From: an uncultured Candidatus Saccharibacteria bacterium
GTDB lineage: Bacteria; Patescibacteriota; UBA1384; GWA2-35-9; CAYZGQ01
Length of the DNA: 64,000 nt
Assembly (NCBI GenBank): GCA_964478135.1
Contig: CAYZGQ010000001.1
Coordinates: 3,365 to 67,364 of the forward strand
Reading direction: 5' to 3'
In this document: piece after piece, positions 16,201 through 45,193 of the stretch
How the letters are laid out: every line of letters begins with the position of its first letter
How positions within the stretch are numbered: the first letter of the stretch is position 1
The notes under the pieces: generated by a model
Databases searched by the model: none
The model's input: only the letters and a program-made list of their open reading frames with translations
What the model was told of the DNA's origin: nothing
Program-made: the position numbers and the translations under genes

Positions 16201-19200
16201 TTTGACACTTCAACCGGCTCTAATAATTCCCATCAGGTTGAATGGAACGCCGCTACCGAGGCAAACTTCAAAAATTATCTTGTCCTGCGTTCAACCGATG
16301 ACGTCAGTTATTCGACGCTCTCAACCATTACCGATTCAACCATCCGCAACTATCGAGACTCCAGCCTTGACTCGGCTACGACTTACTACTATAAGATTCG
16401 GACGACCGACCAGGCTGACACGGCGACCGATACGGCCGCCGTGTCGAACAAACCCGGCGCCCCGACCCTCTCGGCGATTTCTTCCGGCACGCCCGGGACC
16501 AACTCGGCCACCATTACTTGGACTTCAAGCGAAAACGGCAGTTCAGAAGTTCGACTCGGGACCTCAAGCGGCAGTTATGGTCTTGGCGTTCGGGGCAACA
16601 ATGCCGACTCGGCTACCTCCCATTCCCAGTTGGTTTCAAATCTCAATCCCAATACGACCTATTACTACATCGTTAGGTCTCGAGACGGCAGTGGACTGGC
16701 GACCACCTCGGCCGAGAATAGTTTTACCACCGCGGCCAAAGTTTCAGCCAGCTCTCTTGCCTCGAGCGTCAGTCACACGACCGCCACCCTGACTTGGAAC
16801 ACCACTGGCACCAACACCTCGAGTGTTGTTGACTGGGGAACCTCAAGCGGCAGCTACAGCCGATCAGACGGCGACGCCGACGCTTCAGAGACGACCCACT
16901 CGGTTACCTTGAAAGGACTAGCTCCGGGCACGACCTATTACTGGCGGGTCAACTCGACCGATTCAAACCTAAATGCCATTACCTCGACCGAGCAGAACTT
17001 GACCACGACCGCCAGACCGGCGATTTCATCAGTCTCATCCGGCACGCCCGGTCAAACCAGCGCCGCGATCACCTTTTCGACCGACCGGTCGGTCAAGGAT
17101 GTTTTTGTTGATTACATTGCTTCCTCAACAAGCGGCGCCTGCGCCAGTGTCTCGAATGCCAAAACGGTTTCGGGCGGGATCGCCGCCAGCGCCGGCACGT
17201 CCCACAGCGTCTCTTTAACCGGTCTTTCGGCCGGCACGACCCATCGGTTCAGAGTTCGAGTGATCGAGCTTGACGCTTCAGCTGAGAGCGCCAATCAACA
17301 GGTTCAAACGATTGATGACAACTCCGGCGCCTGCTACAGCTTTACCAGCGCGACCGACTCGACCGCTCCGACTATTTCCAATCTCGCTTCCGGCAACATC
17401 ACCAACACCTCGGCGGTTATCACTTGGGAGACCGACGAGCCGGCGACCGGCCTTGTTTCGGTCAGCTCTTCAAGCGGTTTTGGTTTTGCCAGCGGCAGCC
17501 AGACAACCGCCAACCCCTCGGCCAATAATCAGAAACAGACCGCCGTTATTACCGGGTTGACCAGAAACACAACCTACTATTTCTTGGCCCGGTCGGTTGA
17601 CGGTTCAAATAATGCCACGACTGCTCCTGAAGCTTCATTCACGACGACCGGCGACGCGACCGGTCCGGTTATTTCCGGCTTGACCGCAAGCTCGATCACG
17701 ACCGACGGCGCCCTCATAACCTGGACGACCGACGAGCCGGCCACGACTCAAGTCAACTATGGCCAAACGACCAATCTGGGCTCGTCCTCGGCCAAAGATG
17801 AAAAGCTTGATCGCAATCACCGAGTCACGCTATCCGGTCTTTCGGGCGCCACGCTCTATTACTTCCAGGTGGTTTCCCAAGACGCCAACGCTAACGAGAC
17901 CAAGAGCCCTGTTTCCTCGACCACCACCTTGACCACCCAGACCGTGCCGAGTGTCTCGAGCATCTCGCTGGGAGAGATTAGTTCAAAAACAGCGACTGTC
18001 AGCTGGAGCTCCAATCTCGCTGGCGATTCGTTCGTCGATTATGGTCTGACTTCGAGTTATGGTTCGCGTCAAGGTCGAGCTGATGACAGCCAAACCGCAC
18101 ACTCAATCACTCTCTCTGGCTTGAAGTCCTCGACCACTTATTACTTTCGAGTCAGAACAAAAGATTCAAACGGCAACGAAGTCATCTCGTCTGGTTCAAG
18201 CTTTACAACCGAGAGCTCGGAAGACGATGTCTCGTCTGACAAATTGGCCCCGGTCATCAGCGGCAATGAAGCCAGCCTCTCTGGTCTAACCGATACTCGA
18301 GCGACAATCAGCTGGACAACCAACGAGGAGTCAACCTCGAGGGTGGATTATGGTCTTGACCAATCTCTCAATCAGTCCCAAAGCGACGATACTTTTGTGA
18401 CCAAGCATGAATTGAAGTTGACCGGCCTTGAAGCGGGCAAGAAGTATCGTTTTCAAGTCTCGAGTCTCGATCGAAACAAGAACCGCGGCAAAGGGAGCGT
18501 TCAAGAGTTTACGACCGCCAAGTCTTCGGCCATTTCCGACGCTTCGCTCGTCACTCAAGAGCTCGATAAACTGATCCTTTCGGTTCAAACGACCGAGGCG
18601 ACCAAGGTGAGGGCTCTCTTTGGCGCCGGTTTGGACAGACTTGACTCCGAAGTTTCAAGTCTGGGCGCCGAGACCTCGAGCCACGCCTTTGTGATCGAGA
18701 ATCTCACTCCGGGGACGGCCTATTATTTTCAGTTTTCGGTTAAGGACAAGTTTGGTCAGGAAACGACCACACCGAGTTTTTGGAAGTTTGAAACTCGAGC
18801 CTTGCCGAAAATTACGGCCGTTAATGTAACCGACCAACAGGCGACCCAGGCGGTCTTGTTGGTTTCAGTCAACACTAAAGCCCAAGTGATCGCGGCTTAC
18901 ACCGATCTTAATAGCAAAAGCCGGAGCGTTGGCTCTGGAGCGCTGGCCGAAAAGCACGAAATTAGGCTGGACGGTCTGAAACCAGAAGCAACCATTCCAG
19001 TTGCCTTGACCGCGATTGACGCATCTGGCAATCAGGCCGTTTTTCAAACCAATGTTTCGACCACCGGCGATCGGTCCGCGCCCGAATTTCAAAAAATCGA
19101 GACCGAGATTATCGGCGGGAGCGGCAACAAAGGGGCGACGATCATCGTCTCGGCGGTGCTTAGCGAGCTGGCGACACTTAATGGTCAGGCCGGTCTGGCC

Positions 19201-19461
19201 GCCAGCAATCAGACGCCGATAACCACGCCCAAAAACGCCGCCGCTAAGGAACAGACATTGGTTTTTCGGAATCTGCCTTCTGGTCAGTTTGTTAAGTTTA
19301 AGCTGATAGCCGAAGATCCGGCAGGCAATGTCACAGAGTCGCCCGACATCACCACCTTTACCCCGGAGCCGAGTAAAAGCGCTCTGACCCTTATCACGAC
19401 TCAACTTGAAACTATCTTCGGCGGTCTGGGAAAAGGCCTTCAGTCTTTATTTGGCAAGTAA
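13204..19461 (+). CDS. giant secreted/cell-surface protein (2085 aa): two ~230-aa Gly-rich beta-helix-like repeats followed by an array of fibronectin-III-like domains
   Basis: N-terminal hydrophobic segment with an AxA site (RPALA). Tandem Gly-rich repeats (GGGxGG...SGGSIYITAAT x2). At least 10 FN3-like modules with recurring TTYYWRV/YYFRV/YYYKIR/YYFQV signatures. S/T-rich. Confidence 0.8.
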   Translation: MKRHLIKTLERLLHLRRRTTGRVHAHLVGRWGWYRIWHEFPFHRQVHLTSLILIVFGTLGLVLTATRPALATDYTVSTNSTWCDSGDLPASIGNLTINSGVTLTLGGTSGNAVNGQNTGGTDACSYEAPSSGVSWTMTGTGTLTVNGTIKVQSEISGSTGGTVKIDFATVTVASGGKIHADSTGFLSCNTSGCTGGGAGGGQWTSGYYGGGGGHGGKGGTGHITNGKGGSVNGNSFAPVTLGSGGAGGSQGAGGGAVYINSSGTVTVTGTVSANGEVSNSSVGGGGSGGSIYITAATVAGAGTVTTTGGDGGSASAGAGGGGRVDIRYSTANTFSVANATAATGSTGVAGDAGTIIFIDSTNKDGYIYKTFTFSAAQGIDTNLATTTDGIFNFRDLTLGDASNTATVLAISTGTSPNGKGPTLNLTGNFTLASGSTFSANGTGYSGGSTTGVGPGGGTWASGFYGGGGGYGGAGATGSSSYGVGGPTYGSASAPIDLGSEGGGDLASSSGDGGGAIRINATSGTVTINGTISANGSAGGSSVSAGGSGGSIYITAATTAGTGSITANGGAGGSGSAGGGGGGRLGLYYVTAQNHTGSRTASLGSGGTGGSAGTVTLKSIPAAPTLSSPADADGVSTTPALQFSTTNAGTNENVQYYIQIDDNSDFSSVTQTIDQTASQTGWTGQDRANGTSATAGSSFYASSTSATFTVQTALTTNTTYYWRVRAIASGGSNIYGSYSSSRSFVTNDPPQVSITNTPSQDSSGNIAINYNICDTNHSTLTMRVQFTTNNSIYTTVAAGALSGTNSFGSVTGVSSNCASPSAKTVTFDVSADSNVPASYYSAASGNWKVRIQADDGIANGQINSTASSAFELDNVSPATPTHSSPANASYTNDTTPDLTGSAYSDDTTQTNLRIQIDDNSDFSSVAVDYTKGASGVTFTVGQAVGSGTYTAGSAGQTLADGTYYFRLRYTDSKGNLSSYSTGTSFTVDATSPVAPSSFNIFDTSTGSNNSHQVEWNAATEANFKNYLVLRSTDDVSYSTLSTITDSTIRNYRDSSLDSATTYYYKIRTTDQADTATDTAAVSNKPGAPTLSAISSGTPGTNSATITWTSSENGSSEVRLGTSSGSYGLGVRGNNADSATSHSQLVSNLNPNTTYYYIVRSRDGSGLATTSAENSFTTAAKVSASSLASSVSHTTATLTWNTTGTNTSSVVDWGTSSGSYSRSDGDADASETTHSVTLKGLAPGTTYYWRVNSTDSNLNAITSTEQNLTTTARPAISSVSSGTPGQTSAAITFSTDRSVKDVFVDYIASSTSGACASVSNAKTVSGGIAASAGTSHSVSLTGLSAGTTHRFRVRVIELDASAESANQQVQTIDDNSGACYSFTSATDSTAPTISNLASGNITNTSAVITWETDEPATGLVSVSSSSGFGFASGSQTTANPSANNQKQTAVITGLTRNTTYYFLARSVDGSNNATTAPEASFTTTGDATGPVISGLTASSITTDGALITWTTDEPATTQVNYGQTTNLGSSSAKDEKLDRNHRVTLSGLSGATLYYFQVVSQDANANETKSPVSSTTTLTTQTVPSVSSISLGEISSKTATVSWSSNLAGDSFVDYGLTSSYGSRQGRADDSQTAHSITLSGLKSSTTYYFRVRTKDSNGNEVISSGSSFTTESSEDDVSSDKLAPVISGNEASLSGLTDTRATISWTTNEESTSRVDYGLDQSLNQSQSDDTFVTKHELKLTGLEAGKKYRFQVSSLDRNKNRGKGSVQEFTTAKSSAISDASLVTQELDKLILSVQTTEATKVRALFGAGLDRLDSEVSSLGAETSSHAFVIENLTPGTAYYFQFSVKDKFGQETTTPSFWKFETRALPKITAVNVTDQQATQAVLLVSVNTKAQVIAAYTDLNSKSRSVGSGALAEKHEIRLDGLKPEATIPVALTAIDASGNQAVFQTNVSTTGDRSAPEFQKIETEIIGGSGNKGATIIVSAVLSELATLNGQAGLAASNQTPITTPKNAAAKEQTLVFRNLPSGQFVKFKLIAEDPAGNVTESPDITTFTPEPSKSALTLITTQLETIFGGLGKGLQSLFGK

Positions 19462-27445: not shown

Positions 27446-30400
27446 TTGATCCCGCTGGCACAAGCAGGCCAGCTTTTTGGCTATTCAGCCGGTCATATGA
27501 ACTATTTAGCCCGGTCAGGGAAAATAATCGCTTTGAAACTCGGGGGTCAGTGGTACACGACTCGGGCGGCTGTTTCAGCCTACCAGGCCGGTCAACCCCA
27601 ACCGGAAAACCCGACCGGATTTATGTCTTTAGCCCAAGCGGCCAAGCAGTATGGCTATAGCGCCGGACATCTCAACCTTTTAGCCCGAGAAGGTAAGCTT
27701 GAAGCGGTGAAACTTGGGCGAAACTGGTACACGACCGAGCGCGCTATCGACCAGTACCGACAAGGCGTGCGTGAGATAGAATTAGTGCCAGATAGTCCTG
27801 ACCCGGCGCTCCAGATATCCCAGCCAGAAAATATTAATGTTAAAGTCAGGCCAGTAGCCAGTTACCAGGGATTTGGCATAACCGAAACCGATGATGACGC
27901 GCCAGGTCCGACCGGGGGATTTAGGCTCAAGTCAGTTATGGTCAGCCGTGGTTTTAAGCTCGGGTTGATCACACTTATAGTGTCTGGGCTGGCTTTTGGA
28001 CTGGGACGACTGGTTCAAGGCTGGCGCACGGGTGAGTTGAATGGACTGGGGCCATCTGGCATCGCGGCTTATTTGTTTGGTGGAGAGTTGGCCCAAGGAG
28101 ATCGTCTGGGCTCGGGTTTTCTCGGCAGTATCACACGAGAGCGAGCTCAATCCGATACGCCTGGGGTCAGACCCGAGGCGAGCCCTAGTCCGGACACTGT
28201 GGTCAATAACACGACAGTCAACAACTATAACCAGACCGTTAACAACGACAATCGTCAGGTGACAAACATCAGTACAACCAAAACTGCTAAAGATATTGTT
28301 GGAGAGTTATCCGACCCGCAGGTGAGTGATGACATCACGATTAACTCGAGCAAGGCTGGTTCGTTTAGTCCAAGCGGTAACACTACTGCCTTGACGGTCA
28401 AGCAAAGTTCAGCCAGTCCCTCGGAAACCCCGATCGTTAAGATTCAAAACGCGTCTGGGGCTAACCTTGTCACAGTTGATTTTGAAGGCAATTTAGGTCT
28501 GGCTGGTGGATCTAGATTGGAAATAGGCGGTCAGCAAATAGGAATTGCCAATCTAGCGGATGGATCTTCTATCGCGTCTCTTTCCGGTAGTCAAACTCTG
28601 ACTAATAAAACTTTGAGCGCGGGCGTTATCTACCAAGGATCGGCGATTAGCCCGAGCTACGGCGGGACCGGTCTAACATCAGCTCCCAGCAACGGCCAAC
28701 TCTTGATCGGCAATGGCTCGGGTTATACTCTGGCGGCTCTAACGGCTGGGACGGCAATTAATGTGACCAACGGTTCTGGTTCAATTACGATCGCTAATTC
28801 AGGTGTTACCTCGCTATCTGCCGGAACCGGCATCGCTGTTAGCGGTTCGTCGGGCGCGGTTACACTGACCAATTCGGGCGTGACCGCTCTGACCGGCACA
28901 ACCAACCAGGTCAGCCTGTCTGGTTCAACCGGTTCGATCACCATCTCAACGCCCCAAAACATTCATACCGGCGCCAGTCCAACCTTTTCAAGGCTCAATT
29001 TATCCGAGGCGTCCAATCAGTTGGTTCTTCAGTCAAATAGTGTTACAGGCAGTCTGACCTGGACGCCGGTCACATCCAATAAAACGATCACTCTGCCTAA
29101 TCTCACCGGAACCGCTTTTTTGATTGATGGAGGCCAGACGATCAGCTCTGCTGTCTGGAACGCTAGCGCTATCGGCCCGAGCTATGGCGGGACTGGTCAG
29201 ACGACCCTGGCCAAGGGTGATATTTTGTATGGCTCGGCGACTGATATTTGGTCGCGACTGGCTGTTGGCAGTATTGGTTATGTCCTCCAGGTCTCCCTAG
29301 ACGGCGTTCCAGAATGGGCGACTATTTCTTCCTTATCTGTTGGTAATGCTGACACGCTTGATTCGCTTGATTCAGCGGATTTTTTGCGCGCGACCGCCTC
29401 GGACACTTTTGAAGGAGTTAATTCAAGAACCCTGACCATTCAGTCTGATCTTTCCTCAGGCGCGAGGACGGTTGACCTTTTGACGATCAGCCAGGCGAAC
29501 GATCCAACCAATAACTTTACGACTGGCAATCTCCTAACAATTGCCCAACTCGACACCGGTTCGTCGGCCGATGCCTTAGAACTTAATCAGACTGGATCTG
29601 GTAAGGCTATTAACATTGTTTCAGGCGAGCTGGCGACAGCCGGCAACATCGTTCAAACCGGGGCAACCACGCTGTCAACCGGCACGGGCGCGGTCTCGCT
29701 CGGGGGTGACACGACCATCGCTACTGGAAAGAACTTGACTCTCGCGTCCGGGACAGGCACTTTTAGTCAGATTTTTAGTAATACGACCGGTACTGGAGCA
29801 AACTGGAATATCACTAACTCTGGTTCTTCTGGGACTAACACTGTTGGCGGGATAGGATTAGTGTTGGCTGGAACCGCCAACACGACTGGTTCGAATGTGA
29901 TTAATGCTATTAATTTTTCCAATGTCCCTCCGGCGACCAATAATTCTTATTACGCCCTGAATGTCGGAACCGGCTTTACTGATATTGTACGCTACAATGG
30001 CGCCCAGTTGATCTCTGGCTCGGGTGTCATTCAATCGGCCGCGCTTTCTGGTAACTACACTGGTGTTACTGGAGTTGGGATTTTATCCACCGGCACCTGG
30101 AATGCAGACACAATCATCTTTGCCAAGGGCGGCACGGGCTTAACAGCCACGCCCAGCAATGGCCAACTCTTGATCGGCAATGGCTCGGGTTACACTCTGG
30201 CCGGCTTAACCGGCACTACCAATCAGATCAATGTCGCTAGCGGGGCCGGTTCGATCACCCTCTCAACTCCCCAAAACATCCATACCGCCGCCAGTCCAAC
30301 CTTTGCCGGTTTGACTTTGTCCGACTTGACCCCTGGTTCTTTGGTCTTTGCCGGCGCCGGCGGGGTGATCAGCCAGGACAACGCCAAGTTCTTCTGGGAT

Positions 30401-32896
30401 CAGACAAATACTCGATTGGGTCTCGGGACAAGTTCGCCACTTTTTCCGATTCATGTTGTTAGATCGGGCGGTGGCGGGACGTTGAATTTTGACACTTACG
30501 CCGGTTCTGGACTGGGCAACAGCGCCATTCAAGGTCGGCGGGCGGCCGGAACTTTGGCCAGCCCGACAGCCACTCTGTCGGATATGACTCTGTTCGATCT
30601 GCTTGGGTCTGGCTACGACGGTTCAGCTTTCACCGGACAGATCGCTTCGATACGCATGCAAGCCAATCAGAATTTTAGCCCGACCAGTCAGGGCACCAGG
30701 ATTGTCTTTTTGACCACGGCCAATGATTCGACGACCGCGACTGAACGGCTGCGGATCAAACACAATGGCGATGTGGCAATCGGCAACGGCTCGACCGATC
30801 AGATATTATTTGGTTCGACCGGCTCGGCGGTCTTCAACGAACAGGGCAATGATGCCGATTTTCGGGTCGAGGGCGACACCGACGCCAATCTATTGTTCAC
30901 CGACGCTTCGGCCGATGTCTTGGGTGTCGGCACCGCGACCTTCGAAGCCAACACCCGCAAGATGGAGGTGAGATACACCGATACCGCGACCTCCGGAGGC
31001 ACCTTTTCAACGATTAGATTGCTTTCGGACATCAATGCTCCTTCTAACTCCACGGCATCCCATTTTGGTCTAGGAACGACTTTAAGAACCGCGAGCGGCA
31101 ACGCTTCCAACTACACCGACTCCACGACAGGTATTAAGGCGATGAACTTTGTCGTCCAGCACCGAGGCACAGGCACGGTTACTAGAATGACAGGCTTGGG
31201 CGGCAATGTCACCAACAGCTCAAGCGGTACGATTACGACTGCCGAGAGCATCGTGGCTGGGGTTGACCTGACCTCAACCGGTCCGATTACTACTTGGAAC
31301 GCCCTGCGGGTCTTCGCGCCCTCTATCACTGGCTCTGGGGTGCTGACTAACGCTCGCGGGCTTTACATCAGTAACATCACAGGGGCCTCCACGCAGAATC
31401 TAGCTATCCTGACAGAAGGGGGCGGAGTAGTCTTTAATGAAAACGGCACGGACAGCGATTTCCGGGTCGAGGGCGACACCGATGCCAATCTATTGTTCAC
31501 CGACGCTTCGGCTGATCGGGTTGGTATAGGGACAAACACCCCTTCGCTCAAACTTCACGTGGTGGACAACTCTTCAACTTCGGCTATTTTCCAGCGCAAC
31601 AGCACTGCCACCGGTTCGAGTGTTGGCTCAACGGTTTTTTTGGATAATTTGGACACCACGACCAACAATGGAGCTCGTTTGATTTTTAGAACCAACGATA
31701 CTGGCGGCGCAACCAGGCAAGCGGCTGGAATAGGCTCGCTCGTAACCGCCCGGGGTGCTAGCAGTGTGACTGGCGATCTGGTATTCCTGACCAACAACAA
31801 CTCAACCGGCGTTTCCGAGGTTGCTCGGTTAACCGGAGCGGGCGCGCTTGGCATTGGTGAGTCGCCGGCGGCCAATATGAAGCTTGATGTCGCTGGCCGG
31901 GTTCAGATTAATCTGGCCGGAACCCAAACCTCGGTTGCCTTGTGCGGTAGTCACCCGGCTGGCGGCGGGGCCTCGGTTTCCGATGTCGAGATTGTTGACT
32001 GCACCGGCACGCCGGCGGCTGACTATGCCGAGATCTATCCGGTTTCAAACGATGTTGAATACACTGATTTAGTGGCTATCGGACCGGATTCGGTTAAAAC
32101 CACCGATCAAAACTCGATTCAAAGGCTAGTCAAAGCTACGATCGCCAATCAAGCCAACACTTTAGGAGTCGTTGTTGACAACTACGGCGATTTCTCCTCG
32201 GTCGGTCACAACATTAAAGGTTCTGATAATCCCAAACCGGTCGCGCTTTCAGGCCGGGTGAGAGTGAAAGTTTCCGGCCAGTCGGGCGCGATAGCGCCCG
32301 GCGATTATCTGACCGCCTCGTCCAAACCCGGTCGGGCGATGAAGGCGACCTCAAGCGCCAAGATAGTTGGAGTGGCTTTGGGATCATTTAGCGGCGACGA
32401 GGGGACGGTAATGATGTTTGTCAGCAATTTCTGGTATAATCCGTCTTCGGGCGAGAGTATTCAGGGTACCCAAACTGCATCCTACCAGGCGCTCGAAGTT
32501 GCCGGCCTTTTGCGAACGAATCTTTTGGAGGTTGCCGGGCCAGCCGAGTTCAAAGGTAGTTTAGTTGTCTGGGGTGAAACAACCTTTAAGGCACCGGTTG
32601 TGGTTCAAAAGACGCTGACTGCTAAAGAAAAGATCGTGTCCAAAGGTGACCTTGAGCTCAAGGGCAATCTTGTTCTAAACCCCGACATTAAAGGGTCAGC
32701 CTTGCCAGTGACTAAGGGCGCGACCAGCCTTGAGGTCGTGTTTAGCAAGCCCCAAGCTGACACAAGCTACTTGGCTTTCGTCACGCCATCCCAGCCGATC
32801 GGTTTTGGCGTTACCAAACAATCTGACAAAATGATCGTTACCTTTGAGGCCGAGGCGCCGGAAGGATTAATCCTGGATTGGCTGATAGTCAGATGA
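27446..32896 (+). CDS. giant membrane-anchored protein (1816 aa): two N-terminal excisionase-type HTH (HTH_17-like) repeats, one TM helix, tail-fibre-like S/T/G-rich ectodomain
   Basis: Repeats LAQAGQLFGYSAGHMNYLARSGKIIALKLGGQWYTTRAAVSAYQAG and LAQAAKQYGYSAGHLNLLAREGKLEAVKLGRNWYTTERAIDQYRQG fit the excisionase/MerR-type HTH pattern. TM helix at about aa 175-195. The ectodomain has GPSYGGTG and (V/I)GIGT...KLHV tail-fibre-like motifs. The ORF track start is a TTG and the true start is uncertain. Confidence 0.75.
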   Translation: MIPLAQAGQLFGYSAGHMNYLARSGKIIALKLGGQWYTTRAAVSAYQAGQPQPENPTGFMSLAQAAKQYGYSAGHLNLLAREGKLEAVKLGRNWYTTERAIDQYRQGVREIELVPDSPDPALQISQPENINVKVRPVASYQGFGITETDDDAPGPTGGFRLKSVMVSRGFKLGLITLIVSGLAFGLGRLVQGWRTGELNGLGPSGIAAYLFGGELAQGDRLGSGFLGSITRERAQSDTPGVRPEASPSPDTVVNNTTVNNYNQTVNNDNRQVTNISTTKTAKDIVGELSDPQVSDDITINSSKAGSFSPSGNTTALTVKQSSASPSETPIVKIQNASGANLVTVDFEGNLGLAGGSRLEIGGQQIGIANLADGSSIASLSGSQTLTNKTLSAGVIYQGSAISPSYGGTGLTSAPSNGQLLIGNGSGYTLAALTAGTAINVTNGSGSITIANSGVTSLSAGTGIAVSGSSGAVTLTNSGVTALTGTTNQVSLSGSTGSITISTPQNIHTGASPTFSRLNLSEASNQLVLQSNSVTGSLTWTPVTSNKTITLPNLTGTAFLIDGGQTISSAVWNASAIGPSYGGTGQTTLAKGDILYGSATDIWSRLAVGSIGYVLQVSLDGVPEWATISSLSVGNADTLDSLDSADFLRATASDTFEGVNSRTLTIQSDLSSGARTVDLLTISQANDPTNNFTTGNLLTIAQLDTGSSADALELNQTGSGKAINIVSGELATAGNIVQTGATTLSTGTGAVSLGGDTTIATGKNLTLASGTGTFSQIFSNTTGTGANWNITNSGSSGTNTVGGIGLVLAGTANTTGSNVINAINFSNVPPATNNSYYALNVGTGFTDIVRYNGAQLISGSGVIQSAALSGNYTGVTGVGILSTGTWNADTIIFAKGGTGLTATPSNGQLLIGNGSGYTLAGLTGTTNQINVASGAGSITLSTPQNIHTAASPTFAGLTLSDLTPGSLVFAGAGGVISQDNAKFFWDQTNTRLGLGTSSPLFPIHVVRSGGGGTLNFDTYAGSGLGNSAIQGRRAAGTLASPTATLSDMTLFDLLGSGYDGSAFTGQIASIRMQANQNFSPTSQGTRIVFLTTANDSTTATERLRIKHNGDVAIGNGSTDQILFGSTGSAVFNEQGNDADFRVEGDTDANLLFTDASADVLGVGTATFEANTRKMEVRYTDTATSGGTFSTIRLLSDINAPSNSTASHFGLGTTLRTASGNASNYTDSTTGIKAMNFVVQHRGTGTVTRMTGLGGNVTNSSSGTITTAESIVAGVDLTSTGPITTWNALRVFAPSITGSGVLTNARGLYISNITGASTQNLAILTEGGGVVFNENGTDSDFRVEGDTDANLLFTDASADRVGIGTNTPSLKLHVVDNSSTSAIFQRNSTATGSSVGSTVFLDNLDTTTNNGARLIFRTNDTGGATRQAAGIGSLVTARGASSVTGDLVFLTNNNSTGVSEVARLTGAGALGIGESPAANMKLDVAGRVQINLAGTQTSVALCGSHPAGGGASVSDVEIVDCTGTPAADYAEIYPVSNDVEYTDLVAIGPDSVKTTDQNSIQRLVKATIANQANTLGVVVDNYGDFSSVGHNIKGSDNPKPVALSGRVRVKVSGQSGAIAPGDYLTASSKPGRAMKATSSAKIVGVALGSFSGDEGTVMMFVSNFWYNPSSGESIQGTQTASYQALEVAGLLRTNLLEVAGPAEFKGSLVVWGETTFKAPVVVQKTLTAKEKIVSKGDLELKGNLVLNPDIKGSALPVTKGATSLEVVFSKPQADTSYLAFVTPSQPIGFGVTKQSDKMIVTFEAEAPEGLILDWLIVR
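30849..30918 (+). repeat. intragenic repeat copy A (about 70 nt, about 90% identical to copy B exactly 600 nt downstream)
   Basis: ttcgggtcgagggcgacaccgacgccaatctattgttcaccgacgcttcggccgat versus the copy at 31449-31518. Encodes DFRVEGDTDANLLFTDASAD in both. Confidence 0.8.
31449..31518 (+). repeat. intragenic repeat copy B
   Basis: Near-identical to 30849-30918. The flanking sequence is conserved only at the protein level. Confidence 0.8.
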
Positions 32897-34597: not shown

Positions 34598-35275
34598 CTA
34601 GCTGGCTGGCGAGGGGCTTGGGCTAGCGGCTGATTGGCCAGTTTGACGGGCGAACACAATGTAACGTTTGACGAGCGTGCCCGGAGGCCAAGAGGTTTGG
34701 AGAGTTATGGTTTTGTCTTTCGGATCTTTGGGCGTTGGGTCTAGAACCGAGAAGTCGTCAGAGGCGACCACCTTCTTGCCAAAGACCTCGTATTGGTAGG
34801 CGACATTTTTGTAATAGACGATGAACCGATCGCCTTTGTCGAGTTTGTCGATACTTTTGAAGATTTCTTTAAGTTCTGGTTTACCCGGGAAGTTTTTAAA
34901 GTAGCTCGAGTGACCGAAGATGTACATATTTCCCAGTTGGTCCGGTTTCTGGCTACCTTTTAGATGTGCGACACCGAGCTGGGAGGTGATTTTTTGATAG
35001 ACCGGTTCGTTAGCCCCGTCAACATCCGCGATAATTGGAACCCGGATGCTGATTTTTTCGATCTCAAGACCAAATTCTTTGATCTCGACTGGTTCTGGCA
35101 GGGAACTTTGATTAAGCCCTGAAGGAGAGGCAGAGGGTTGAACGATTGATACGTTCAAGCCTGACTTTACCAAAGCAAGCGTTCCGGCAACAACCATAGC
35201 GCTTGCTAGTCCAATACCAAGAATAACTAGCTTTTTTTGAGTAGTCACTTGTGGCAAGACAGATTGTGGGTTCAC
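34598..35275 (-). CDS. sortase-family transpeptidase homolog with Ser in place of the catalytic Cys (the protein has no Cys)
   Basis: N-terminal TM anchor. Conserved sortase His (MYIFGHSSY). The TLxTC motif reads KTITLQTSWPPG (codon tct). Conserved Arg (LVKRYIVFARQ). The GTG start overlaps the upstream LPKTG gene's stop as GTGA. Confidence 0.7.
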   Translation of the reverse strand: MNPQSVLPQVTTQKKLVILGIGLASAMVVAGTLALVKSGLNVSIVQPSASPSGLNQSSLPEPVEIKEFGLEIEKISIRVPIIADVDGANEPVYQKITSQLGVAHLKGSQKPDQLGNMYIFGHSSYFKNFPGKPELKEIFKSIDKLDKGDRFIVYYKNVAYQYEVFGKKVVASDDFSVLDPTPKDPKDKTITLQTSWPPGTLVKRYIVFARQTGQSAASPSPSPAS

Positions 35276-38200
35276 GCGAGCCGGCGTCGAAGGGTTACCG
35301 CGACCGATCCAGCGGCAAGAGCGGCCAGTCCGATCAAGGCCAGTAGGTTGAGCGCGAGCGTGTTGGCCCCGGTTTTCGGCAGCTCAACAACCTGCGCCGA
35401 AACCTGATCGGTGTTAATTGACTCGTTGCCAGTTGTATCGAGGGAGCGCAGGGTGTAGTAGTATGTCCCTTTGGCGGTCAGGCTGTCATTATAACTCGTG
35501 TCTGCCTTGACGGTCGTCTTAATTTTATCGCCTAGCTTTCCAGATTCACTCGAGCGGTAAATGTTAATCTTGTCAAAGTCAGAGTCGGTTGGATTTTTCC
35601 AAGTTAAACTGATCTTACCAGTGCCGGCAGTCGCTTTGACTTCGCTTGGAGCGGCCGGCGGGGCGCTGTCAGCGTTGGCCGCCAGGCCAAAGACGGTTAA
35701 GTGGGAAACCAAACAACTAACTTCGTTTTTAGTGGTGTCAACGGTGCAGTTTTCCTTAGACAGTGAACCATCGGTCTCGTTGAATGAGACGATCTGGATA
35801 TCAGCTTCTTTGACCCCGGCCGGAATATCGGATTCTTTATAGGGGAAGGTGACGGTCAAGGGACTGTTGGGAGAAGTAATGTTAGAACCATTAGAGTCGA
35901 TCGCCGTGATATTATAAGCCTTTCCAAAGACAGAGGCACCTTCTTGGGCAGGCATTTCTGCTGTGGCGCCAACATTAAGCGTGACATTAGCGTCATCATT
36001 GTTTTTATCGAGTGCATCTGCGGGCACTTGGATGTTCATACCATCGCTTAAGGAGATTGCCGTAGCCGAACCCGAATTGCCAGTTCTTGAAGCGTCAGCT
36101 GGCAAAACGTTGCTTTGGGTAGTCAAACTAAAATCTTGGGTGAGATTGGTCGTTTGACCCTTGGTGTTAACCAGTTTTTCACCTGGTAGGATTATGACAT
36201 CTTTTTGGTTATCAGCATCTTTGGCGACATCAAGGTGCCAGACAGTATCTTTGGTGGCATTCATTGAGTATTTGCCATTGGAATCAGTCCGGACTTGGTT
36301 GACAGCGCCGTCGTCGGAATAGGCGCTGACAAGGGCATTGTTGACTGTTTGAGCGCTGGAATCATTAACTGTGCCTTCAAACTTAAAGTCGGCTTTGCGT
36401 AACTTAAAGTCAACCCCAGTTTTAGTTTCTTGATTGCCCACGCTAACGATTTGTTCAGCCGGTGGTAGCCAGCCATTTTTATTCAGCACTTCGGGCGCCA
36501 TAAAAACTCGGATGTTTTGGGTTTCACTGGAAGTGACATCGATTGAGTAGCTACCATTCGTATCAGTTTGGCCACTGAATTCGAAGAAGTCAGGCACAGG
36601 ACCTTTAGTTGCGTTGCGGTTATCGTCGTCTAGGCCGTTGTCCACTTTAACTTTCGCTCCCACGACCGCGTTACCATCGGGATCGGTGACTTTACCTTGG
36701 ATTTTGCTGTCAAGGGCTTTGAGTGTTACTTTAACCTCTGCCGTTTGGCCGGCCGTCAGGCTGACTTTGTCTTTGGGGGGTACCATGGCAAAGCCTGAAC
36801 CTGGTTCGATAAAGACACCGACACGGTAGGGGCTTTGCCCGGCAACAACACTAATGTTGTTAACAGAGGCGGCTCCGCCATGACCGGCGAAATCACCCAT
36901 GACATTGACACCTTTGTCAGAAATAGCAAAGGCGTGGGCAAAGACGCCGGAAATGGCACTGCCGTCAGATTTCACTAACTTAACGGCAATGTTAGCATCG
37001 GTAGGAACCAGCTTGATATCAATTGATTTGACCTCGTTTTTAGCAAGTTTGACCTTGCTAAATCCTTCGGGCATAAAGCCGTTCATTGGCATCATTGGGT
37101 TTAATGTGTACTCATTGTCACCGGGAACTTTGATATTAGCGCTCCCACGCTGGATTGGTTTACCCAGAAAGCCGATCGTATCACTATTAACTTCCATAAA
37201 GCCAAAGCTGTCAGAGACGACAGCTTTGGTGTCAGAACGGGTAATCCTGGCCTTGATGGTGGCATCGGCGTTAAGTGCCTCGAAGGTAGCTGTTCCACCG
37301 GCTTCAACGAACTGTGGCCCGCCTTTGATCACCTTGGAACTGCCAGCCTGTTGCTCTTGATCCTTTTGACCACCTTCAGGTCCAAAGTTCTCTGACATCA
37401 CCATCACGCCGTATTTGCCCGTGCCGACCACAGGGATCGTGCCGGTTGCTTCGGTCCCAGTCAGCTTAAGAATAGTAAAGCCGAATTCACCGCCTCCACC
37501 GACGCCCATCTTAAAGACATTGGCATTCATGTCGGCGGAGCCGTTTTTAACCACGACTTTGATTGCCTTTTCTTTTTTTACCAGAGTCAGGATACCGAGG
37601 TTTTTGGTTTCGCCGGCTTTAACCGCGATTGGCTCAATGACAGGCGCTGCGAACTGGGCGGCGTTGGGATTTTGGAAGTTCGGTGGCGAAAAGATGTCGA
37701 AATTATAGCTTTTTCCTCCGGCTACTTTCACGTTGAAGTTGACCGAGGAGGCACCCGGGGTAATCTGGAGGGGCGCGCCAAAGCCAAAGTCATTACCGGC
37801 CCGGATACCAAGACCGGTGCCTTGAGCTAGGGCGGATCCATCAGGCGTGGTAATTGTACCGGTAACCGCGGCGTCGACTTTTACGAAGTTATTAATGTTA
37901 ACGGTGACTGTTTCCACTGAATCGTCGTCTTTAAAGCTAGCCTGAATTGGCGGACCGCTCATCACGAAACTGCCGGCCCCATCGCTCGGGGCATGGATAT
38001 TCCATCTACCACCCGAGAGTTTGACGCTGTAGTTGCCGCTCCCGTCGGTTTTAGTTTGGGCAAAACCACCCGCTTCTTTAAAGAAGTTTAAGCTAGTAGT
38101 GATTACAGCTTCACCGGTCGCGGTGGTTGCTTTACCGGTTAAAGTTTTGGTCGCAGATTTAAATTTAATGGTTTTGCCAGTCAATTGGCTGCCGGTGTAG

Positions 38201-38577
38201 GTACCAAGATCTGTGAACGGGGGAGAGATTAATCCAGTGGTTGAGCCGTCAAACGGTGGGAAAAGATCGGCCACGAGCTTGTCGCCGCTTTGGGTGTTAT
38301 TAGCGAAGTCTTGGATAGTTGCCAGGCCGTTAGCGTCTGAATTGCTAAATAAGGAATATTTAAAATCAATCGGATGGACGTTAACTCCGGCGTTTTTGAC
38401 CGGCGCGCCATCGGCATCCTGGATGGTAATTACAATAATGGTTTTAGCCGTGGGTGGTGGTTGGGCGAGTGAGGCGCCAGAGTAGGCGAGGACTAGGCCC
38501 GCGATAGTGAAGACGCTTGTAAGGCCGCGCCAGTACAGGCGGAAAGCACCCGCCTGGGTCGTTCCTGATTGTAACAT
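35272..38577 (-). CDS. LPKTG-anchored cell-surface protein (about 1100 aa) with carboxypeptidase-regulatory-like/Ig-like domains and a C-terminal FN3 module
   Basis: Signal peptide. C-terminus ...VVELPKTGANTLALNLLALIGLAALAAGSVAVTLRRRLA is an LPxTG motif plus hydrophobic segment plus basic tail. The track start at 38598 is a TTG. The ATG at 38577 (MLQSG...) follows a strong SD AAAGGAGGG and is preferred. Confidence 0.8.
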   Translation of the reverse strand: MLQSGTTQAGAFRLYWRGLTSVFTIAGLVLAYSGASLAQPPPTAKTIIVITIQDADGAPVKNAGVNVHPIDFKYSLFSNSDANGLATIQDFANNTQSGDKLVADLFPPFDGSTTGLISPPFTDLGTYTGSQLTGKTIKFKSATKTLTGKATTATGEAVITTSLNFFKEAGGFAQTKTDGSGNYSVKLSGGRWNIHAPSDGAGSFVMSGPPIQASFKDDDSVETVTVNINNFVKVDAAVTGTITTPDGSALAQGTGLGIRAGNDFGFGAPLQITPGASSVNFNVKVAGGKSYNFDIFSPPNFQNPNAAQFAAPVIEPIAVKAGETKNLGILTLVKKEKAIKVVVKNGSADMNANVFKMGVGGGGEFGFTILKLTGTEATGTIPVVGTGKYGVMVMSENFGPEGGQKDQEQQAGSSKVIKGGPQFVEAGGTATFEALNADATIKARITRSDTKAVVSDSFGFMEVNSDTIGFLGKPIQRGSANIKVPGDNEYTLNPMMPMNGFMPEGFSKVKLAKNEVKSIDIKLVPTDANIAVKLVKSDGSAISGVFAHAFAISDKGVNVMGDFAGHGGAASVNNISVVAGQSPYRVGVFIEPGSGFAMVPPKDKVSLTAGQTAEVKVTLKALDSKIQGKVTDPDGNAVVGAKVKVDNGLDDDNRNATKGPVPDFFEFSGQTDTNGSYSIDVTSSETQNIRVFMAPEVLNKNGWLPPAEQIVSVGNQETKTGVDFKLRKADFKFEGTVNDSSAQTVNNALVSAYSDDGAVNQVRTDSNGKYSMNATKDTVWHLDVAKDADNQKDVIILPGEKLVNTKGQTTNLTQDFSLTTQSNVLPADASRTGNSGSATAISLSDGMNIQVPADALDKNNDDANVTLNVGATAEMPAQEGASVFGKAYNITAIDSNGSNITSPNSPLTVTFPYKESDIPAGVKEADIQIVSFNETDGSLSKENCTVDTTKNEVSCLVSHLTVFGLAANADSAPPAAPSEVKATAGTGKISLTWKNPTDSDFDKINIYRSSESGKLGDKIKTTVKADTSYNDSLTAKGTYYYTLRSLDTTGNESINTDQVSAQVVELPKTGANTLALNLLALIGLAALAAGSVAVTLRRRLA

Positions 38578-38630
38578 TATCCCTCCTTTTGAGCTCAAGA
38601 TATATTTAATTAATTTGTAATTCTGTTTTT

Positions 38631-38659
38631 AAAATAACAAGATTTGGCAGATGTGTCAA
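38631..38659 (-). promoter_or_regulatory. sigma70-like promoter for the LPKTG-protein/sortase operon
   Basis: On the minus strand: TTGACA, a 17-nt spacer, then TATTTT. About 50 nt upstream of the SD and ATG at 38577. Confidence 0.45.
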
Positions 38660-41575: not shown

Positions 41576-44500
41576 GTGCTGGGTGTTTTAGCCCTGCTCG
41601 GTCTGGTTTTAGTCAGTCCTTCGGCCGTCCAGGCCGGTGCAATCACCGGTTTGTCGGTTACAGTCAGTGACACGAGCGTCCAAGGGACGGCTGACTGGAC
41701 AATTGCCCTGACTCCAGAACAGTCAGTCCCAGCCAAGTCAAATGGCGGTCGGATTCACATGTGTGTCTATGGACCAGGCTCGATGAGTTTTCGGGATGGT
41801 TCTGTCGCGCTCGATTCGTCGGCTAGCACGAGCGGTTTGTCAATCTATGAACGGTTGGGAAATTGTATCACCCTTCAGTCAAACAGCGAGATCGCAGGAG
41901 GAACGGTTATCACTGCCAAACTGACAGGGGTTAGAAACCCAGACAAAGCCGGACGGTATGTTGGTCACATCTACAGCTCGACCTACGGCACCGCCCGAGA
42001 CGGCACCTCTCGCTGGGGCGGGCTCTACAATAGTTCTTTTACCATCGGCGATTTGACCAAGAACACTATTTCAGGTACGGTCACAGATGCCAATGGCGCA
42101 CCGGTCCGGTTTGCCTCCGTCTCTGTTTGGGGTAGCGGCGGCGGCGCTTGGGGCTACAGCTACACCGATCAAAATGGCCAGTACGCGATCGGCAGTCTAA
42201 CCACTGGCTCCTACAACTTTAGCGTCTACGGTCCCTACAACGAAGACGGTATCTTTTATTTTGCGCCTGATGTTTCGAGTATTTCAATTTCCGATACTTC
42301 GGCCACGACCAAAAACGCCAGCTTTTTAGCGACTCCCAAAACATTGCAAATTAAGGTTGAGGACGGCTCTGGTACAGCCATAACCGATGCCTATGTCTCG
42401 ATCTGGTCCAGAAACGGGAATGGTTGGGCTCAAACCAAAAACAACACCAACGGAGTCTACAAGATTAATGTTCCGAAAAACCGGACTTTTGGGTTTAGCG
42501 TTTATCCCCAAAATTGGCCTTCAACCTGGCAGTCATGCGGCAGTTATAACGAAGAAGTTACGACCGCCAACACCGATACGGCCGAGACTGTCAGTAAGAC
42601 GTTTAAGGTTTCCTCGCTCAACGCCACGGTCAAAGGTAAGATTGAGCGGTCTGACGATAGCACGCCCAAGCGCTGGTCAGTGAGCGTGAGTTTCCAGTCA
42701 AGCGGAGGTTGCTGGGCTTCAGCCGACTTTCCCGACGACACTGGTAATTTCAGCGCTAAAGTTGTCAGTGGCGAGACTATCACCGCGACTGGTTGGGTTT
42801 CGAGTGATCTCAACGAATCATTCCCAACGGTCAGTAACTTTTCGGTCCAAGCCAACCAAGAGCACAACCTGGGCGTAATCAAACTTAAAAAGCGTGATAA
42901 AAAGCTCGCTGTGACGGTTGTGGACAAAAATGGCGATCCGGTTAACAAGGCCAACGTCTACGCTTGGAAAACTGGCGGTTCGTATGAATATGCCAACGGC
43001 ACAACTGGCTCCGATGGCAATGCGGAACTCTTTTTGAGTCCAGGCAGCTGGAATGTTTCGGCCGGGCCAGAGTACCGCTGGAATGGCTCAAACAACGAAT
43101 ATGACTATGTCTCCAACTGGAAGTCTCAATTGATCAGCTTTTCCGAGTCAGACACGACTAAAACGATCAAGTTTATCTTCCAAAAGGTTACCTCAACGAT
43201 TAATGTCACCGTGACCGATGAGGCTGGGAGCGTCCTTAACCTATCGGGTAGTTTGTCGGCCAACGATGGTTCGCAAGAATGGTCAAATATCTGGTCCCAG
43301 CTCAATAGTGGCAAAGGCAAGCTTAGGGTTCCCCGAGGGACCTGGAGTGTTAACGCCAGTATTTGGGATGAGACCTATAGCTCACCAAATCCGGTTGACA
43401 TCACGATCGGTGATAATGAGACCAAAGAGATCAAGCCCAAGGCCTTGATCAATGATTCGACCATTTCCGGCAAAATCTACACAGAAGATGAAGATGGTAA
43501 CCGGACCCTGCTTAAAAACACTTGGCTTAGCATCTATGCTAACAAAAAAAATTCCTACTCTTCTTGGCGGTCAGCCTCGGTCAACCAAGAAGAAGGAACC
43601 TATTCGATCAAAGTTTCCTCGGGTGACTGGAGGCTCGGTTACTGGTTTTATAACAACAATTATATGTCAGGATACGGGAACGAAGTTGATGTATCGGTTA
43701 AATCAGGTGAAACTAAGACCCAAGATATTATTCTGCGCAAAGCTAACTACACCATCTCGGTCAAGGCGCTCGATCCAGACGGCAAGGCGCTGATGGGGGC
43801 TTGGATCACGGCTGACACGCGCAATCCTAAAGAGCGGACCGAAGCTGGTACTTGGTACTCAACCGGTACCTCAACCAATAATCAGGGAGAGGGGACGATT
43901 CAAGTGTCAGCCAACACTTACTGGATTAGTGGTTCGATGTGGTCAGGTTATATCAGTCCAGAGCGCCAAGAGGTTAAGGTCAATAAAGACAATCCAACTG
44001 CCAGTGTCACTCTCCAGTTCGGTCGGTCTGATGCGACTATATCTGGCACAGTCAAGCTCGATGACAAAGGGACTAAGTCGTTTGTTAATGCGGTCAGCGA
44101 GAAAGGCCGCTATGCCGAGACTAATTCAAGTAACGAAGGCCATTACATCCTCAACGTCTCGAAAGACGACACTTGGGTCGTCAAGGCAGTTAAAAAGGAT
44201 GGCGCAACTTTGTATCGATCAGACAAGAATCGAGTTGATCTCACTGGTAAGACCACGGGCATAGTCAATCTCGATTTGGTAAAAGAAACAATCAAGTTGC
44301 CGGAGGGGACGACCAGCACCTTTAATGCCAGCCAGTCAACTACCGTTAAGATTAAAAATGGCAATGTTGACGAAGTGATCATCACTGTTCCGACTGGCAC
44401 CCTGTCGAGCGATAATGAACAGATAACTGTAACGGCCGATGTGACCGAAGAGGTCACCGACACTTCAACTAGCGAGCCTGTTTTCGACTACGGTTATGAC

Positions 44501-45193
44501 ATCAACGCCAACGGTAGCCAATCCGGCACAATCAGCCAGTTGAAGGATAACGTGACCGTGACCGTAAACTATTCGGCCAACGAGCAGGCGATCCAAGATG
44601 AGGGAACAGAAGAGGACCTAGTGGTAGCCCGTTTCAACAACGAGAAAGGTGAATGGGAGCAACTCCAAGGTTGCGCTACAAACAAGGATGACAACACTAT
44701 TACCTGTCAAAATAATCACTTCACCAAGTTTGCGGTTGTCGCTTCAACCGACATCACCCCACCTTCTGCTCCAGGTAGCCAGAAGGCGATTGCTTCGAAC
44801 GCTAAGATTTCTTTAAGCTGGAGCAAGCCAAGCCAGGCCGACTTTGCCGGGGTTAACATCTATCGGTCAACCGAGAGTGGCAAGCTGGGTGATAAGATTT
44901 ACGGCAAAAATACCTCCACCAGTCACGACGATACGGTTCTGATCAACGACACGGTCTATTACTATACCCTCAAGTCAGTTGACAAAGCCGGTAACGAGTC
45001 AACCGCATCCGATCAGCTCAAAGCCAAGCCTTCAGCAACCTCGCCGGAGTCATCGGACGGTTCAACCACTGCCACGCTCTCAATTCTGCCCAAGACTGGT
45101 CAACCAGCCTCGCCTTTGAATTGGTTGTTGGCGATTCTGACAGTGATCAGCCTGGCCGGGGTCAGGGCATCGAGGATTGTCCGGATTAAGTGA
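41576..45193 (+). CDS. LPKTG-anchored cell-surface protein (1205 aa), paralogous architecture to 35272-38577
   Basis: GTG start immediately after an in-frame stop. Signal peptide LLGLVLVSPSAVQA. Multiple carboxypeptidase-regulatory-like domains (GTVTDANGAPV). C-terminal FN3 module (VNIYRSTESGKLGDKI...YYYTLKSVDKAGNES) and a sorting signal LPKTGQPASPLNWLLAILTVISLAGVRASRIVRIK. Confidence 0.8.
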   Translation: MLGVLALLGLVLVSPSAVQAGAITGLSVTVSDTSVQGTADWTIALTPEQSVPAKSNGGRIHMCVYGPGSMSFRDGSVALDSSASTSGLSIYERLGNCITLQSNSEIAGGTVITAKLTGVRNPDKAGRYVGHIYSSTYGTARDGTSRWGGLYNSSFTIGDLTKNTISGTVTDANGAPVRFASVSVWGSGGGAWGYSYTDQNGQYAIGSLTTGSYNFSVYGPYNEDGIFYFAPDVSSISISDTSATTKNASFLATPKTLQIKVEDGSGTAITDAYVSIWSRNGNGWAQTKNNTNGVYKINVPKNRTFGFSVYPQNWPSTWQSCGSYNEEVTTANTDTAETVSKTFKVSSLNATVKGKIERSDDSTPKRWSVSVSFQSSGGCWASADFPDDTGNFSAKVVSGETITATGWVSSDLNESFPTVSNFSVQANQEHNLGVIKLKKRDKKLAVTVVDKNGDPVNKANVYAWKTGGSYEYANGTTGSDGNAELFLSPGSWNVSAGPEYRWNGSNNEYDYVSNWKSQLISFSESDTTKTIKFIFQKVTSTINVTVTDEAGSVLNLSGSLSANDGSQEWSNIWSQLNSGKGKLRVPRGTWSVNASIWDETYSSPNPVDITIGDNETKEIKPKALINDSTISGKIYTEDEDGNRTLLKNTWLSIYANKKNSYSSWRSASVNQEEGTYSIKVSSGDWRLGYWFYNNNYMSGYGNEVDVSVKSGETKTQDIILRKANYTISVKALDPDGKALMGAWITADTRNPKERTEAGTWYSTGTSTNNQGEGTIQVSANTYWISGSMWSGYISPERQEVKVNKDNPTASVTLQFGRSDATISGTVKLDDKGTKSFVNAVSEKGRYAETNSSNEGHYILNVSKDDTWVVKAVKKDGATLYRSDKNRVDLTGKTTGIVNLDLVKETIKLPEGTTSTFNASQSTTVKIKNGNVDEVIITVPTGTLSSDNEQITVTADVTEEVTDTSTSEPVFDYGYDINANGSQSGTISQLKDNVTVTVNYSANEQAIQDEGTEEDLVVARFNNEKGEWEQLQGCATNKDDNTITCQNNHFTKFAVVASTDITPPSAPGSQKAIASNAKISLSWSKPSQADFAGVNIYRSTESGKLGDKIYGKNTSTSHDDTVLINDTVYYYTLKSVDKAGNESTASDQLKAKPSATSPESSDGSTTATLSILPKTGQPASPLNWLLAILTVISLAGVRASRIVRIK

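Follow-up and report, generated by a model that had tools for sequence, protein, structure and literature searches.

A recurrent cysteine-to-serine replacement at the catalytic position of sortases from Candidate Phyla Radiation bacteria

Introduction

Can a sortase dispense with its catalytic cysteine? The question is raised by a 225-residue protein encoded on the minus strand of a 64,000-nucleotide stretch of DNA (hereafter the window) from an uncultured Candidatus Saccharibacteria bacterium, which has the layout of a sortase, carries Ser where the catalytic Cys is expected, and is encoded next to a surface protein that ends in an LPKTG sorting signal. The definition of sortases, their classification (MEROPS C60), their inhibition and their engineering all treat them as cysteine transpeptidases, and a serine family, if true, would change that definition. 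A sortase family has been reported in more than half of the genomes of the Candidate Phyla Radiation (CPR) (PMC6744442), and what appears to be new here is not this family but a recurrent, conserved Cys-to-Ser switch within it. Comparison with its relatives indicates that the window protein is one instance of this switch, which is accompanied by a co-evolving active-site signature and by conserved linkage to the substrate gene.

Results

Fold and active site of the window sortase

The gene and the residues on which the argument turns are as follows, with equivalent positions in Staphylococcus aureus sortase A (SaSrtA).

34598..35275, minus strand: Ser-sortase gene, 225 amino acids from a GTG start, with a signal-anchor and a predicted extracytoplasmic sortase domain at about residues 66-212
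35168..35230, minus strand: membrane anchor, residues 16-36 (LVILGIGLASAMVVAGTLALV) with QKK just before it, from hydrophobicity and a helix at residues 15-37 of the model
34691..34693, minus strand: Ser195, codon TCT, in TLQTS; aligned with SaSrtA C184
34910..34912, minus strand: His122, in FGHSS; SaSrtA H120; present in all sequences that align at this column
34664..34666, minus strand: Arg204, in KR; SaSrtA R197; invariant
34922..34924, minus strand: Tyr118; SaSrtA S116; the Ser variants have Tyr (119/119), Cys relatives Phe or Val
34697..34699, minus strand: Gln193, the x of TLxTC; SaSrtA I182; the Ser variants have Gln (119/119), Cys relatives Met for the most part
34994..34996, minus strand: Gln94; SaSrtA P94; 118/119 Ser variants have Gln or His, the majority of Cys relatives Leu, Phe or Asn

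In a Pfam search the open reading frame (ORF) matched PF04203 (Sortase) at 76.7 bits (cut-off 26.6) over all but the last of the 125 profile positions (1-124), and it also passed the generic NCBIfam model TIGR01076 (sortase_fam; 42.5 bits, cut-off 39.35). An AlphaFold2 model built from 43 homologs has a predicted confidence (pLDDT) above 90 in the beta-barrel core, and all of the top 50 Foldseek matches of this model in the PDB were sortases, with TM-scores of up to 0.78. By Pfam score and predicted fold, the window ORF is therefore a full-length sortase. It possesses the membrane anchor expected of such a protein, which by the positive-inside rule would place the catalytic domain outside the cell.

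The identity of the catalytic residue was approached through two alignments. In a HMMER alignment to the solved sortase 8gr6, TLQTS-WPPG of the window protein falls on TLVTC-TPYG, with Ser195 on the catalytic Cys, and mapping to SaSrtA through the hidden Markov model (HMM) of the family equates H122 with H120, S195 with C184 and R204 with R197. The numbering of the SaSrtA sequence used reproduces H120, C184 and R197. The window protein contains no cysteine at all; it lacks the Cys of the TLxTC motif by which the sortase superfamily is recognized, and retains the His of strand beta4 and the Arg of strand beta8. The initial annotation, which had described a membrane anchor, His, barrel and Arg together with a tct Ser codon in a Cys-free protein, and had proposed profile searches and a structural model as a check, was thus borne out on each of these points.

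Public annotations of the gene differ in its start, giving either 199 amino acids from an internal ATG (Met27) or 225 from the overlapping GTG, and the call from Met27 would remove half of the membrane helix. The GTG is a candidate for the true start; no Shine-Dalgarno sequence precedes any of the candidate starts.

Distribution of the Ser state

Of the first 42 homologs collected, five distinct proteins carried Ser in the catalytic column and, as in the window protein, lacked Cys altogether; the remainder had Cys. The Ser codon was TCT in the window, TCC in P0002, P0004 and P0039, and AGC in P0041; the closest Cys relative has TGC. A profile search of 1.84 billion cluster representatives contributed, within its best 150 matches, two further Ser proteins and one with Asn, and the 80 highest-ranking loci among GTDB species representatives were without exception of the Cys type (Ser 0/80). 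The impression that the Ser state is very rare (5/42 first matches, 0/80 in GTDB, 8/185 proteins) was a sampling effect of using the window protein as query, because a profile built from seven Ser variants, which matched 724 proteins at E<=1e-10, brought 111 more: Ser stood at the nucleophile column in 111 of the 112 new proteins among the matches listed. A scan of JGI metagenome contigs added 80 loci, every one of them with Ser (80/80). In total, at least 119 distinct sortases have Ser at this column, so far found only in metagenome-assembled genomes (MAGs) of CPR/Patescibacteria. Those retrieved with the Ser profile come from Candidatus Kerfeldbacteria, the Parcubacteria group and the Patescibacteria group, and their sources label them only as 'sortase', 'class E sortase' or 'hypothetical'.

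These numbers bear on an artefactual explanation of the Ser codon, namely that tgt was read as tct, that the assembly is faulty, or that the gene is a decaying pseudogene in one genome. TCT is one base from TGT, and the three public assemblies that hold the exact protein may derive from the same reads. The ORF is nevertheless intact and full length, the model is confident, and the same Ser with its co-varying residues recurs in P0002, P0004 and P0237, which are 48-61% identical and come from other samples, and in more than 100 proteins of a second clade (clade B, below). With Ser in at least 119 distinct proteins from many samples, error or a lone pseudogene was rejected as the source of the phenomenon, and we regard an artefact as extremely improbable. 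The search of relatives called for by the initial annotation recovered both Cys sortases and Ser variants, and its description of the catalytic Cys as universally conserved does not stand, since more than 100 natural Ser variants exist.

Three observations on individual family members may be recorded here. A single relative, P0173, shows Asn in place of the nucleophile (TLMTNWPPGS), with Cys as the residue right after the catalytic His (FGHCEYD), and could be a dead enzyme or one with a relocated nucleophile. The N-terminus of P0184 seems over-extended, with five Cys in a leader that is probably untranslated; 7 kb from this Ser-sortase gene, in a CPR MAG, an RVT_1 reverse transcriptase gene (L087, 1900-3297) lies beside a bAvd gene, a pair that looks like a diversity-generating retroelement.

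Conservation and co-variation around the nucleophile

Ser, His and Arg are invariant in 119/119 Ser sequences, and these contain no other conserved Cys. In the metagenomic genes of clade B the Ser codon is TCT in 29, TCA in 17, TCC in 15, TCG in 13, AGT in 2 and AGC in 2; the residue was retained through many changes of codon, and both codon families (TCN and AGY) are in use. According to the 'two serines' argument attributed to Brenner, the occurrence of TCN and AGY at an invariant Ser is reportedly consistent with passage through Cys (TGY). Nei-Gojobori ratios of nonsynonymous to synonymous divergence (dN/dS) are 0.02-0.04 for close pairs (dS 0.5-0.8), distant pairs being saturated and uninformative. 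The pattern indicates that the Ser hydroxyl is under selection, and the relaxed constraint that would be expected of a dead sortase is not seen in the invariant triad, the six Ser codons or the dN/dS values. Candidates for an alternative nucleophile were considered and rejected: single Cys residues are scattered at variable positions only (GNCY, TSCP), and Thr194 is Ala in some members.

The Ser does not occur by itself. Tyr118 and Gln193 are found together in 119/119 Ser sequences, as against 4/177 Cys sequences (P0003, P0267, P0180 and P0182), and column 201 is Ala in Ser sequences (Leu in the window) and Thr, Ile, Asp or Asn in Cys relatives. Columns 118, 193, 94 and 201 map to SaSrtA S116, I182, P94 and W194, of which the last three lie in the sorting-signal groove or the beta7-beta8 loop and are targets of mutations that alter activity or specificity; S116 and H120 share one face of beta4. 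Exchanging Phe for Tyr and Met for Gln is almost isosteric and would bring additional hydrogen-bonding groups close to the nucleophile. With Q94-Y118-Q193-S195 the window protein has the signature of the CPR Ser-sortase group as we define it in this analysis.

Conservation of this kind has to be weighed against the possibility that these proteins are pseudo-sortases, which keep the fold and bind LPXTG, as a retention factor, chaperone or regulator of the adhesin, without catalysis, so that any anchoring would fall to a different enzyme or would not take place. Precedent for loss of activity comes from the engineered S. aureus SrtA C184S variant, which is nearly inactive (its activity is dramatically reduced according to PMC4827206, citing earlier work), and from Cys-to-Ser pseudo-enzymes in other cysteine-hydrolase families, such as the loss of activity in OTU deubiquitinases (PMC4654579). 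The weakness of SaSrtA C184S implies that Ser alone is insufficient in a classical scaffold. A non-catalytic role is nonetheless less easily reconciled with a Ser fixed in 119/119 sequences across six codons beside invariant His and Arg under dN/dS of 0.02-0.04, and with coordinated, convergent and roughly isosteric changes (Phe to Tyr, Met to Gln) at neighbouring active-site positions, and mere binding would not obviously need all three catalytic positions.

Phylogeny and the origin of Ser

A neighbour-joining tree of 41 representatives was built from the catalytic domain after removal of five co-varying columns, with 100 bootstraps; an earlier tree on all columns had given the same picture. 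The large Ser clade, clade B, which includes Kerfeldbacteria, Parcubacteria and other Patescibacteria and is much larger than clade A, received 84% support, and clade A, to which the window protein belongs, received 60%, or 100% without the window protein. Within clade A the window protein branches first, then P0074, then P0003 with P0267, and then P0002, P0004 and P0237. The states at positions 94, 118, 193 and 195 along this series are QYQS in the window, QFMC in P0074, QYQC in P0003 and P0267, and HYQS in P0002, P0004 and P0237, so that Cys and Ser are interleaved within the clade. Since clades A and B never formed an exclusive group (0/100 bootstraps), Ser on this tree arose at least twice, in A and in B. 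The extant states suggest an order in which the Tyr and Gln changes came first and Ser second.

Linkage to LPXTG proteins

The features of the locus around the sortase gene are as follows.

35272..38598, minus strand: LPKTG surface protein, longest ORF 1,108 amino acids, with CarboxypepD_reg-like repeats (ORF and Pfam)
35368..35382, minus strand: its LPKTG sorting motif (...VELPKTG), followed by 26 hydrophobic or small residues and then RRRLA
35272..35275, minus strand: GTGA, in which the sortase GTG (35273-35275) overlaps the TGA (35272-35274) of the LPKTG gene
38631..38659, minus strand: promoter-like site TTGACA-17-TATTTT with TG, just upstream of the LPKTG gene, by consensus match only
41576..45193, plus strand: second LPKTG protein, 1,205 amino acids, a paralog of the first, with LPKTG at 45086-45100

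The first LPKTG gene probably starts at the ATG at 38577, just after a strong AAGGAGG. This start gives a protein of 1,101 amino acids, in agreement with the protein length of 1100 residues and the end coordinate in the initial annotation, whose GTG overlap is likewise confirmed. The translational coupling that it had asserted fared less simply: the 4-nt overlap is real, overlapping sortase/LPXTG gene calls occur in relatives as well, and re-initiation at the overlap fits, because no AAGGAGG-like ribosome-binding site is found at the candidate sortase starts, but coupling itself is a plausible interpretation of these features. The window as a whole contains one sortase ORF and two LPKTG proteins, which share 25% identity (E ~1e-60), and the protein at 41576..45193 is a probable second substrate of the window sortase.

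Genes for EF-Ts, S2, a release factor, a large LPXTG protein, the sortase, an HtrA-like protease and GatB follow one another in this order at two loci of the Cys type (L003 and L170) and at the Ser loci (window/L006 and L171), from which it follows that the Cys and Ser sortases of clade A are positional orthologs; the short contig L002 holds the LPXTG-protein/sortase pair only. The adjacent substrate ends in LPKTG in the window, L003 and L170, in LPTTG in L002, L004 and L171, and in LPRTG in L005. In clade B, an LPxTG ORF ends directly beside the sortase on the same strand in 40 of the 62 metagenomic Ser loci with enough upstream sequence for the adjacency test (38 of them LPRTG), compared with 9/75 for Cys-type CPR sortases. 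The clade B cargo contains SpaA_2, SpaA_4, SdrD_B and DUF11 domains, prealbumin-like folds typical of Gram-positive pilins and adhesins, and BLAST found no homology between the window substrates and those of clade B. In a clade B subgroup near P0039 the sortase gene has no such neighbour, as would be usual for a housekeeping sortase. When genes up to 4 kb away were clustered, no operon partner emerged besides the LPxTG substrate family; a cluster from 33 loci proved to be a spurious antisense ORF over the sortase gene, and LPFA(S/T) matches were discarded as sorting signals, being the GMN motif of CorA-like proteins.

Window positions 35396-38445 (minus strand), the body of the adhesin, match positions 634-3689 of L171, which comes from a distantly related genome, with 83% DNA identity over 3,059 nt, whereas housekeeping proteins of the two are just 38-53% identical. 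Synonymous difference (pS) between window and L171 is 0.50 in the adhesin, 0.87 in the adjacent sortase and 0.77 in HtrA, and adhesin identity falls at both ends, in the signal peptide and in the sorting signal (LPKTG versus LPTTG). This suggests that the surface-exposed 'passenger' part of the adhesin alone was recently exchanged horizontally or recombined.

No second sortase of any family was found in the 64-kb window or in 752 kb flanking 80 Ser loci, a search that covered at most 20 kb per related locus and to that extent leaves room for a pseudo-sortase. Together with the finding that Cys and Ser positional orthologs serve homologous substrates with intact sorting signals, the flank result makes a non-catalytic binding protein an unlikely, if still appreciable, alternative. 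The sortase HMM is able to detect other sortase families, as it found a divergent Cys sortase in L029. This protein, encoded at L029 8822-9466 (minus strand) in the complete genome of Berkelbacteria GW2011_GWE1_39_12, has the motifs AGHYG...LVTCEG...KR and lies about 2.4 kb from a CPR-type Cys sortase, which shows that some CPR genomes carry two sortase families side by side.

Linkage also bears on a different outcome of catalysis, in which the protein is an active Ser hydrolase and not a transpeptidase, a sheddase or maturation protease that frees the adhesin or leaves it attached non-covalently. Oxy-esters undergo aminolysis less readily than thio-esters, a conserved single-substrate operon would fit a dedicated processing protease, and the structure of the CPR envelope is unclear (PMC5220378). 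Against this, the substrates retain the full tripartite sorting signal typical of anchored proteins, and the orthologs with Cys that occupy this locus in relatives are sortases of the ordinary kind. Ser acyl-enzymes of penicillin-binding proteins, moreover, do transpeptidate. We consider a purely hydrolytic enzyme improbable, and more so than a pseudo-sortase.

Other features of the window

The 1,816-residue protein encoded at window 27446-32896 (plus strand) combines two HTH_17-like repeats at its N-terminus with a membrane segment and a long, repetitive body rich in Gly, Ser and Thr. It sits between GatB and HtrA, which are adjacent in L170, and the gene looks like an insertion relative to the relatives. 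A 2,085-residue protein with seven Pur_ac_phosph_N/fn3-type repeats and no LPXTG signal is encoded at window 13204-19461 (plus strand), where the GC content of the window is highest (0.55-0.57 versus about 0.49) and GC skew is negative. Rfam at gathering threshold gave no matches in window 1-64000, not even a tRNA.

Discussion

A Ser-dependent sortase: proposal and objections

The initial annotation had offered two readings of its protein, a pseudo-enzyme or a mechanistically novel serine transpeptidase. Conservation, covariation, orthologous replacement of Cys by Ser and substrate linkage favour the active alternative without proving activity, and we propose, with a probability of roughly 0.6, that the window protein is a functional membrane-anchored sortase that uses a Ser nucleophile (Ser/His/Arg, with an ester acyl-enzyme) and acts on LPXTG. 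The LPKTG sorting signal of the adjacent 1,101-residue protein, and probably that of the paralog at 41576-45193, would be bound by the enzyme; His122 would serve as general base for Ser195, which would attack the Thr-Gly bond, and Arg204 together with the polar pair Tyr118/Gln193, which is Phe/Met in Cys relatives, might position the substrate and stabilise the oxyanion. The acyl-enzyme would then be an oxy-ester and not a thio-ester, to be resolved by the amine of a cell-wall precursor or of another protein. For the wider claim, that a widespread CPR family of true Ser sortases with Ser/His/Arg and the Tyr/Gln pair evolved at least twice from Cys sortases, with Tyr/Gln-plus-Cys intermediates still extant, we see slightly better than even odds.

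Several considerations weigh against this proposal. The case for activity is comparative throughout; the roles assigned to Tyr118 and Gln193 are deduced from strand geometry and from structure-function work on SrtA; and no acidic third residue that would orient the His was identified. The reaction may end in transpeptidation or in hydrolysis. The trees are neighbour-joining trees on about 130 columns with weak deep nodes, and a Cys sortase elsewhere in these genomes is possible, the search for one having covered 64 kb here and at most 20 kb per related locus. The near inactivity of SaSrtA C184S is a further objection.

If the proposal is true, sortases may not strictly be cysteine enzymes, and for their fold no earlier natural change of nucleophile would have been described. 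It would also be a rare Cys-to-Ser switch among orthologs in which the permissive mutations are visible (first Phe to Tyr, next Met to Gln and last Cys to Ser), so that what the scaffold needs for a nucleophile swap becomes testable by a few point mutants. Thiol-free and oxidation-insensitive enzymes for LPXTG ligation, and thus for sortase-mediated protein ligation, could become available. The envelopes of CPR cells are poorly understood, and the findings bear as well on the way in which these cells display adhesins that are probably used for host attachment. Were the proteins inactive, they would constitute a remarkably conserved pseudo-sortase family, which would also be new.

Comparison with known sortases and serine enzymes

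The Ser sortases resemble the class C, D and E sortases of Firmicutes and Actinobacteria (Clostridium perfringens SrtD, 4D70; SrtC, 7D6P/6IXZ; Streptomyces coelicolor SrtE1, 5CUW; all MEROPS C60) in their eight-stranded barrel, N-terminal anchor, beta4 His, TLxT(C) strand, beta8 Arg and LPXTG substrates, and often share an operon with their cargo gene, as do the pilus-specific class C enzymes. They differ from these classes in the Ser nucleophile and in the Gln/His94-Tyr118-Gln193-Ser195 signature. The window sortase belongs to none of classes A-F, because its scores with the class-specific NCBIfam models (NF033745-NF033748 and related) are all under the curated cut-offs (best for class E, 51.2 bits versus 160); clade B and Cys CPR members likewise fall far under every class cut-off, and the class scores as a whole are 25-75 bits against cut-offs of 140-166. 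Among solved structures, sortases of classes D, C, E and A come nearest, with 17-28% identity, and no natural Ser form was found among solved sortase structures. The full-text literature searched, in which coverage of subscription papers is incomplete, held no description of a natural Ser sortase.

Closer to hand are the Cys-type CPR sortases (FGHSSY...TLMTCWPPGT...KR; P0003, P0267 and P0008 of Berkelbacteria), which are of the same subfamily, 40-66% identical, and in clade A occupy the same chromosomal position beside a homologous LPXTG protein. Unlike the Ser group they have a Cys nucleophile and usually Phe118 and Met193, and fewer of them adjoin a substrate gene. SaSrtA C184S, which has been employed as a Cys-less scaffold (PMC5578623), embodies the same single-atom change of S to O at the nucleophile. 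It does so without the accompanying Tyr/Gln/Gln/Ala changes of the natural Ser sortases.

Enzymes of other folds indicate that the chemistry is feasible. A Ser-His dyad can cleave sorting signals, as in rhombosortase and the rhomboid proteases, and in the penicillin-binding DD-transpeptidases a Ser acyl-enzyme is resolved by an amine, so that an ester supports cell-wall transpeptidation. The folds of rhomboids and penicillin-binding proteins are unrelated to that of sortase, and the comparison is one of analogy, not homology. Interchange of Cys and Ser nucleophiles within one fold is known from the PA protease clan, in which chymotrypsin and picornain 3C differ in this way. The switch in the PA clan is ancient and separates whole families, whereas in the CPR sortases Cys and Ser replace one another among positional orthologs, with apparent intermediates that combine Tyr and Gln with Cys.

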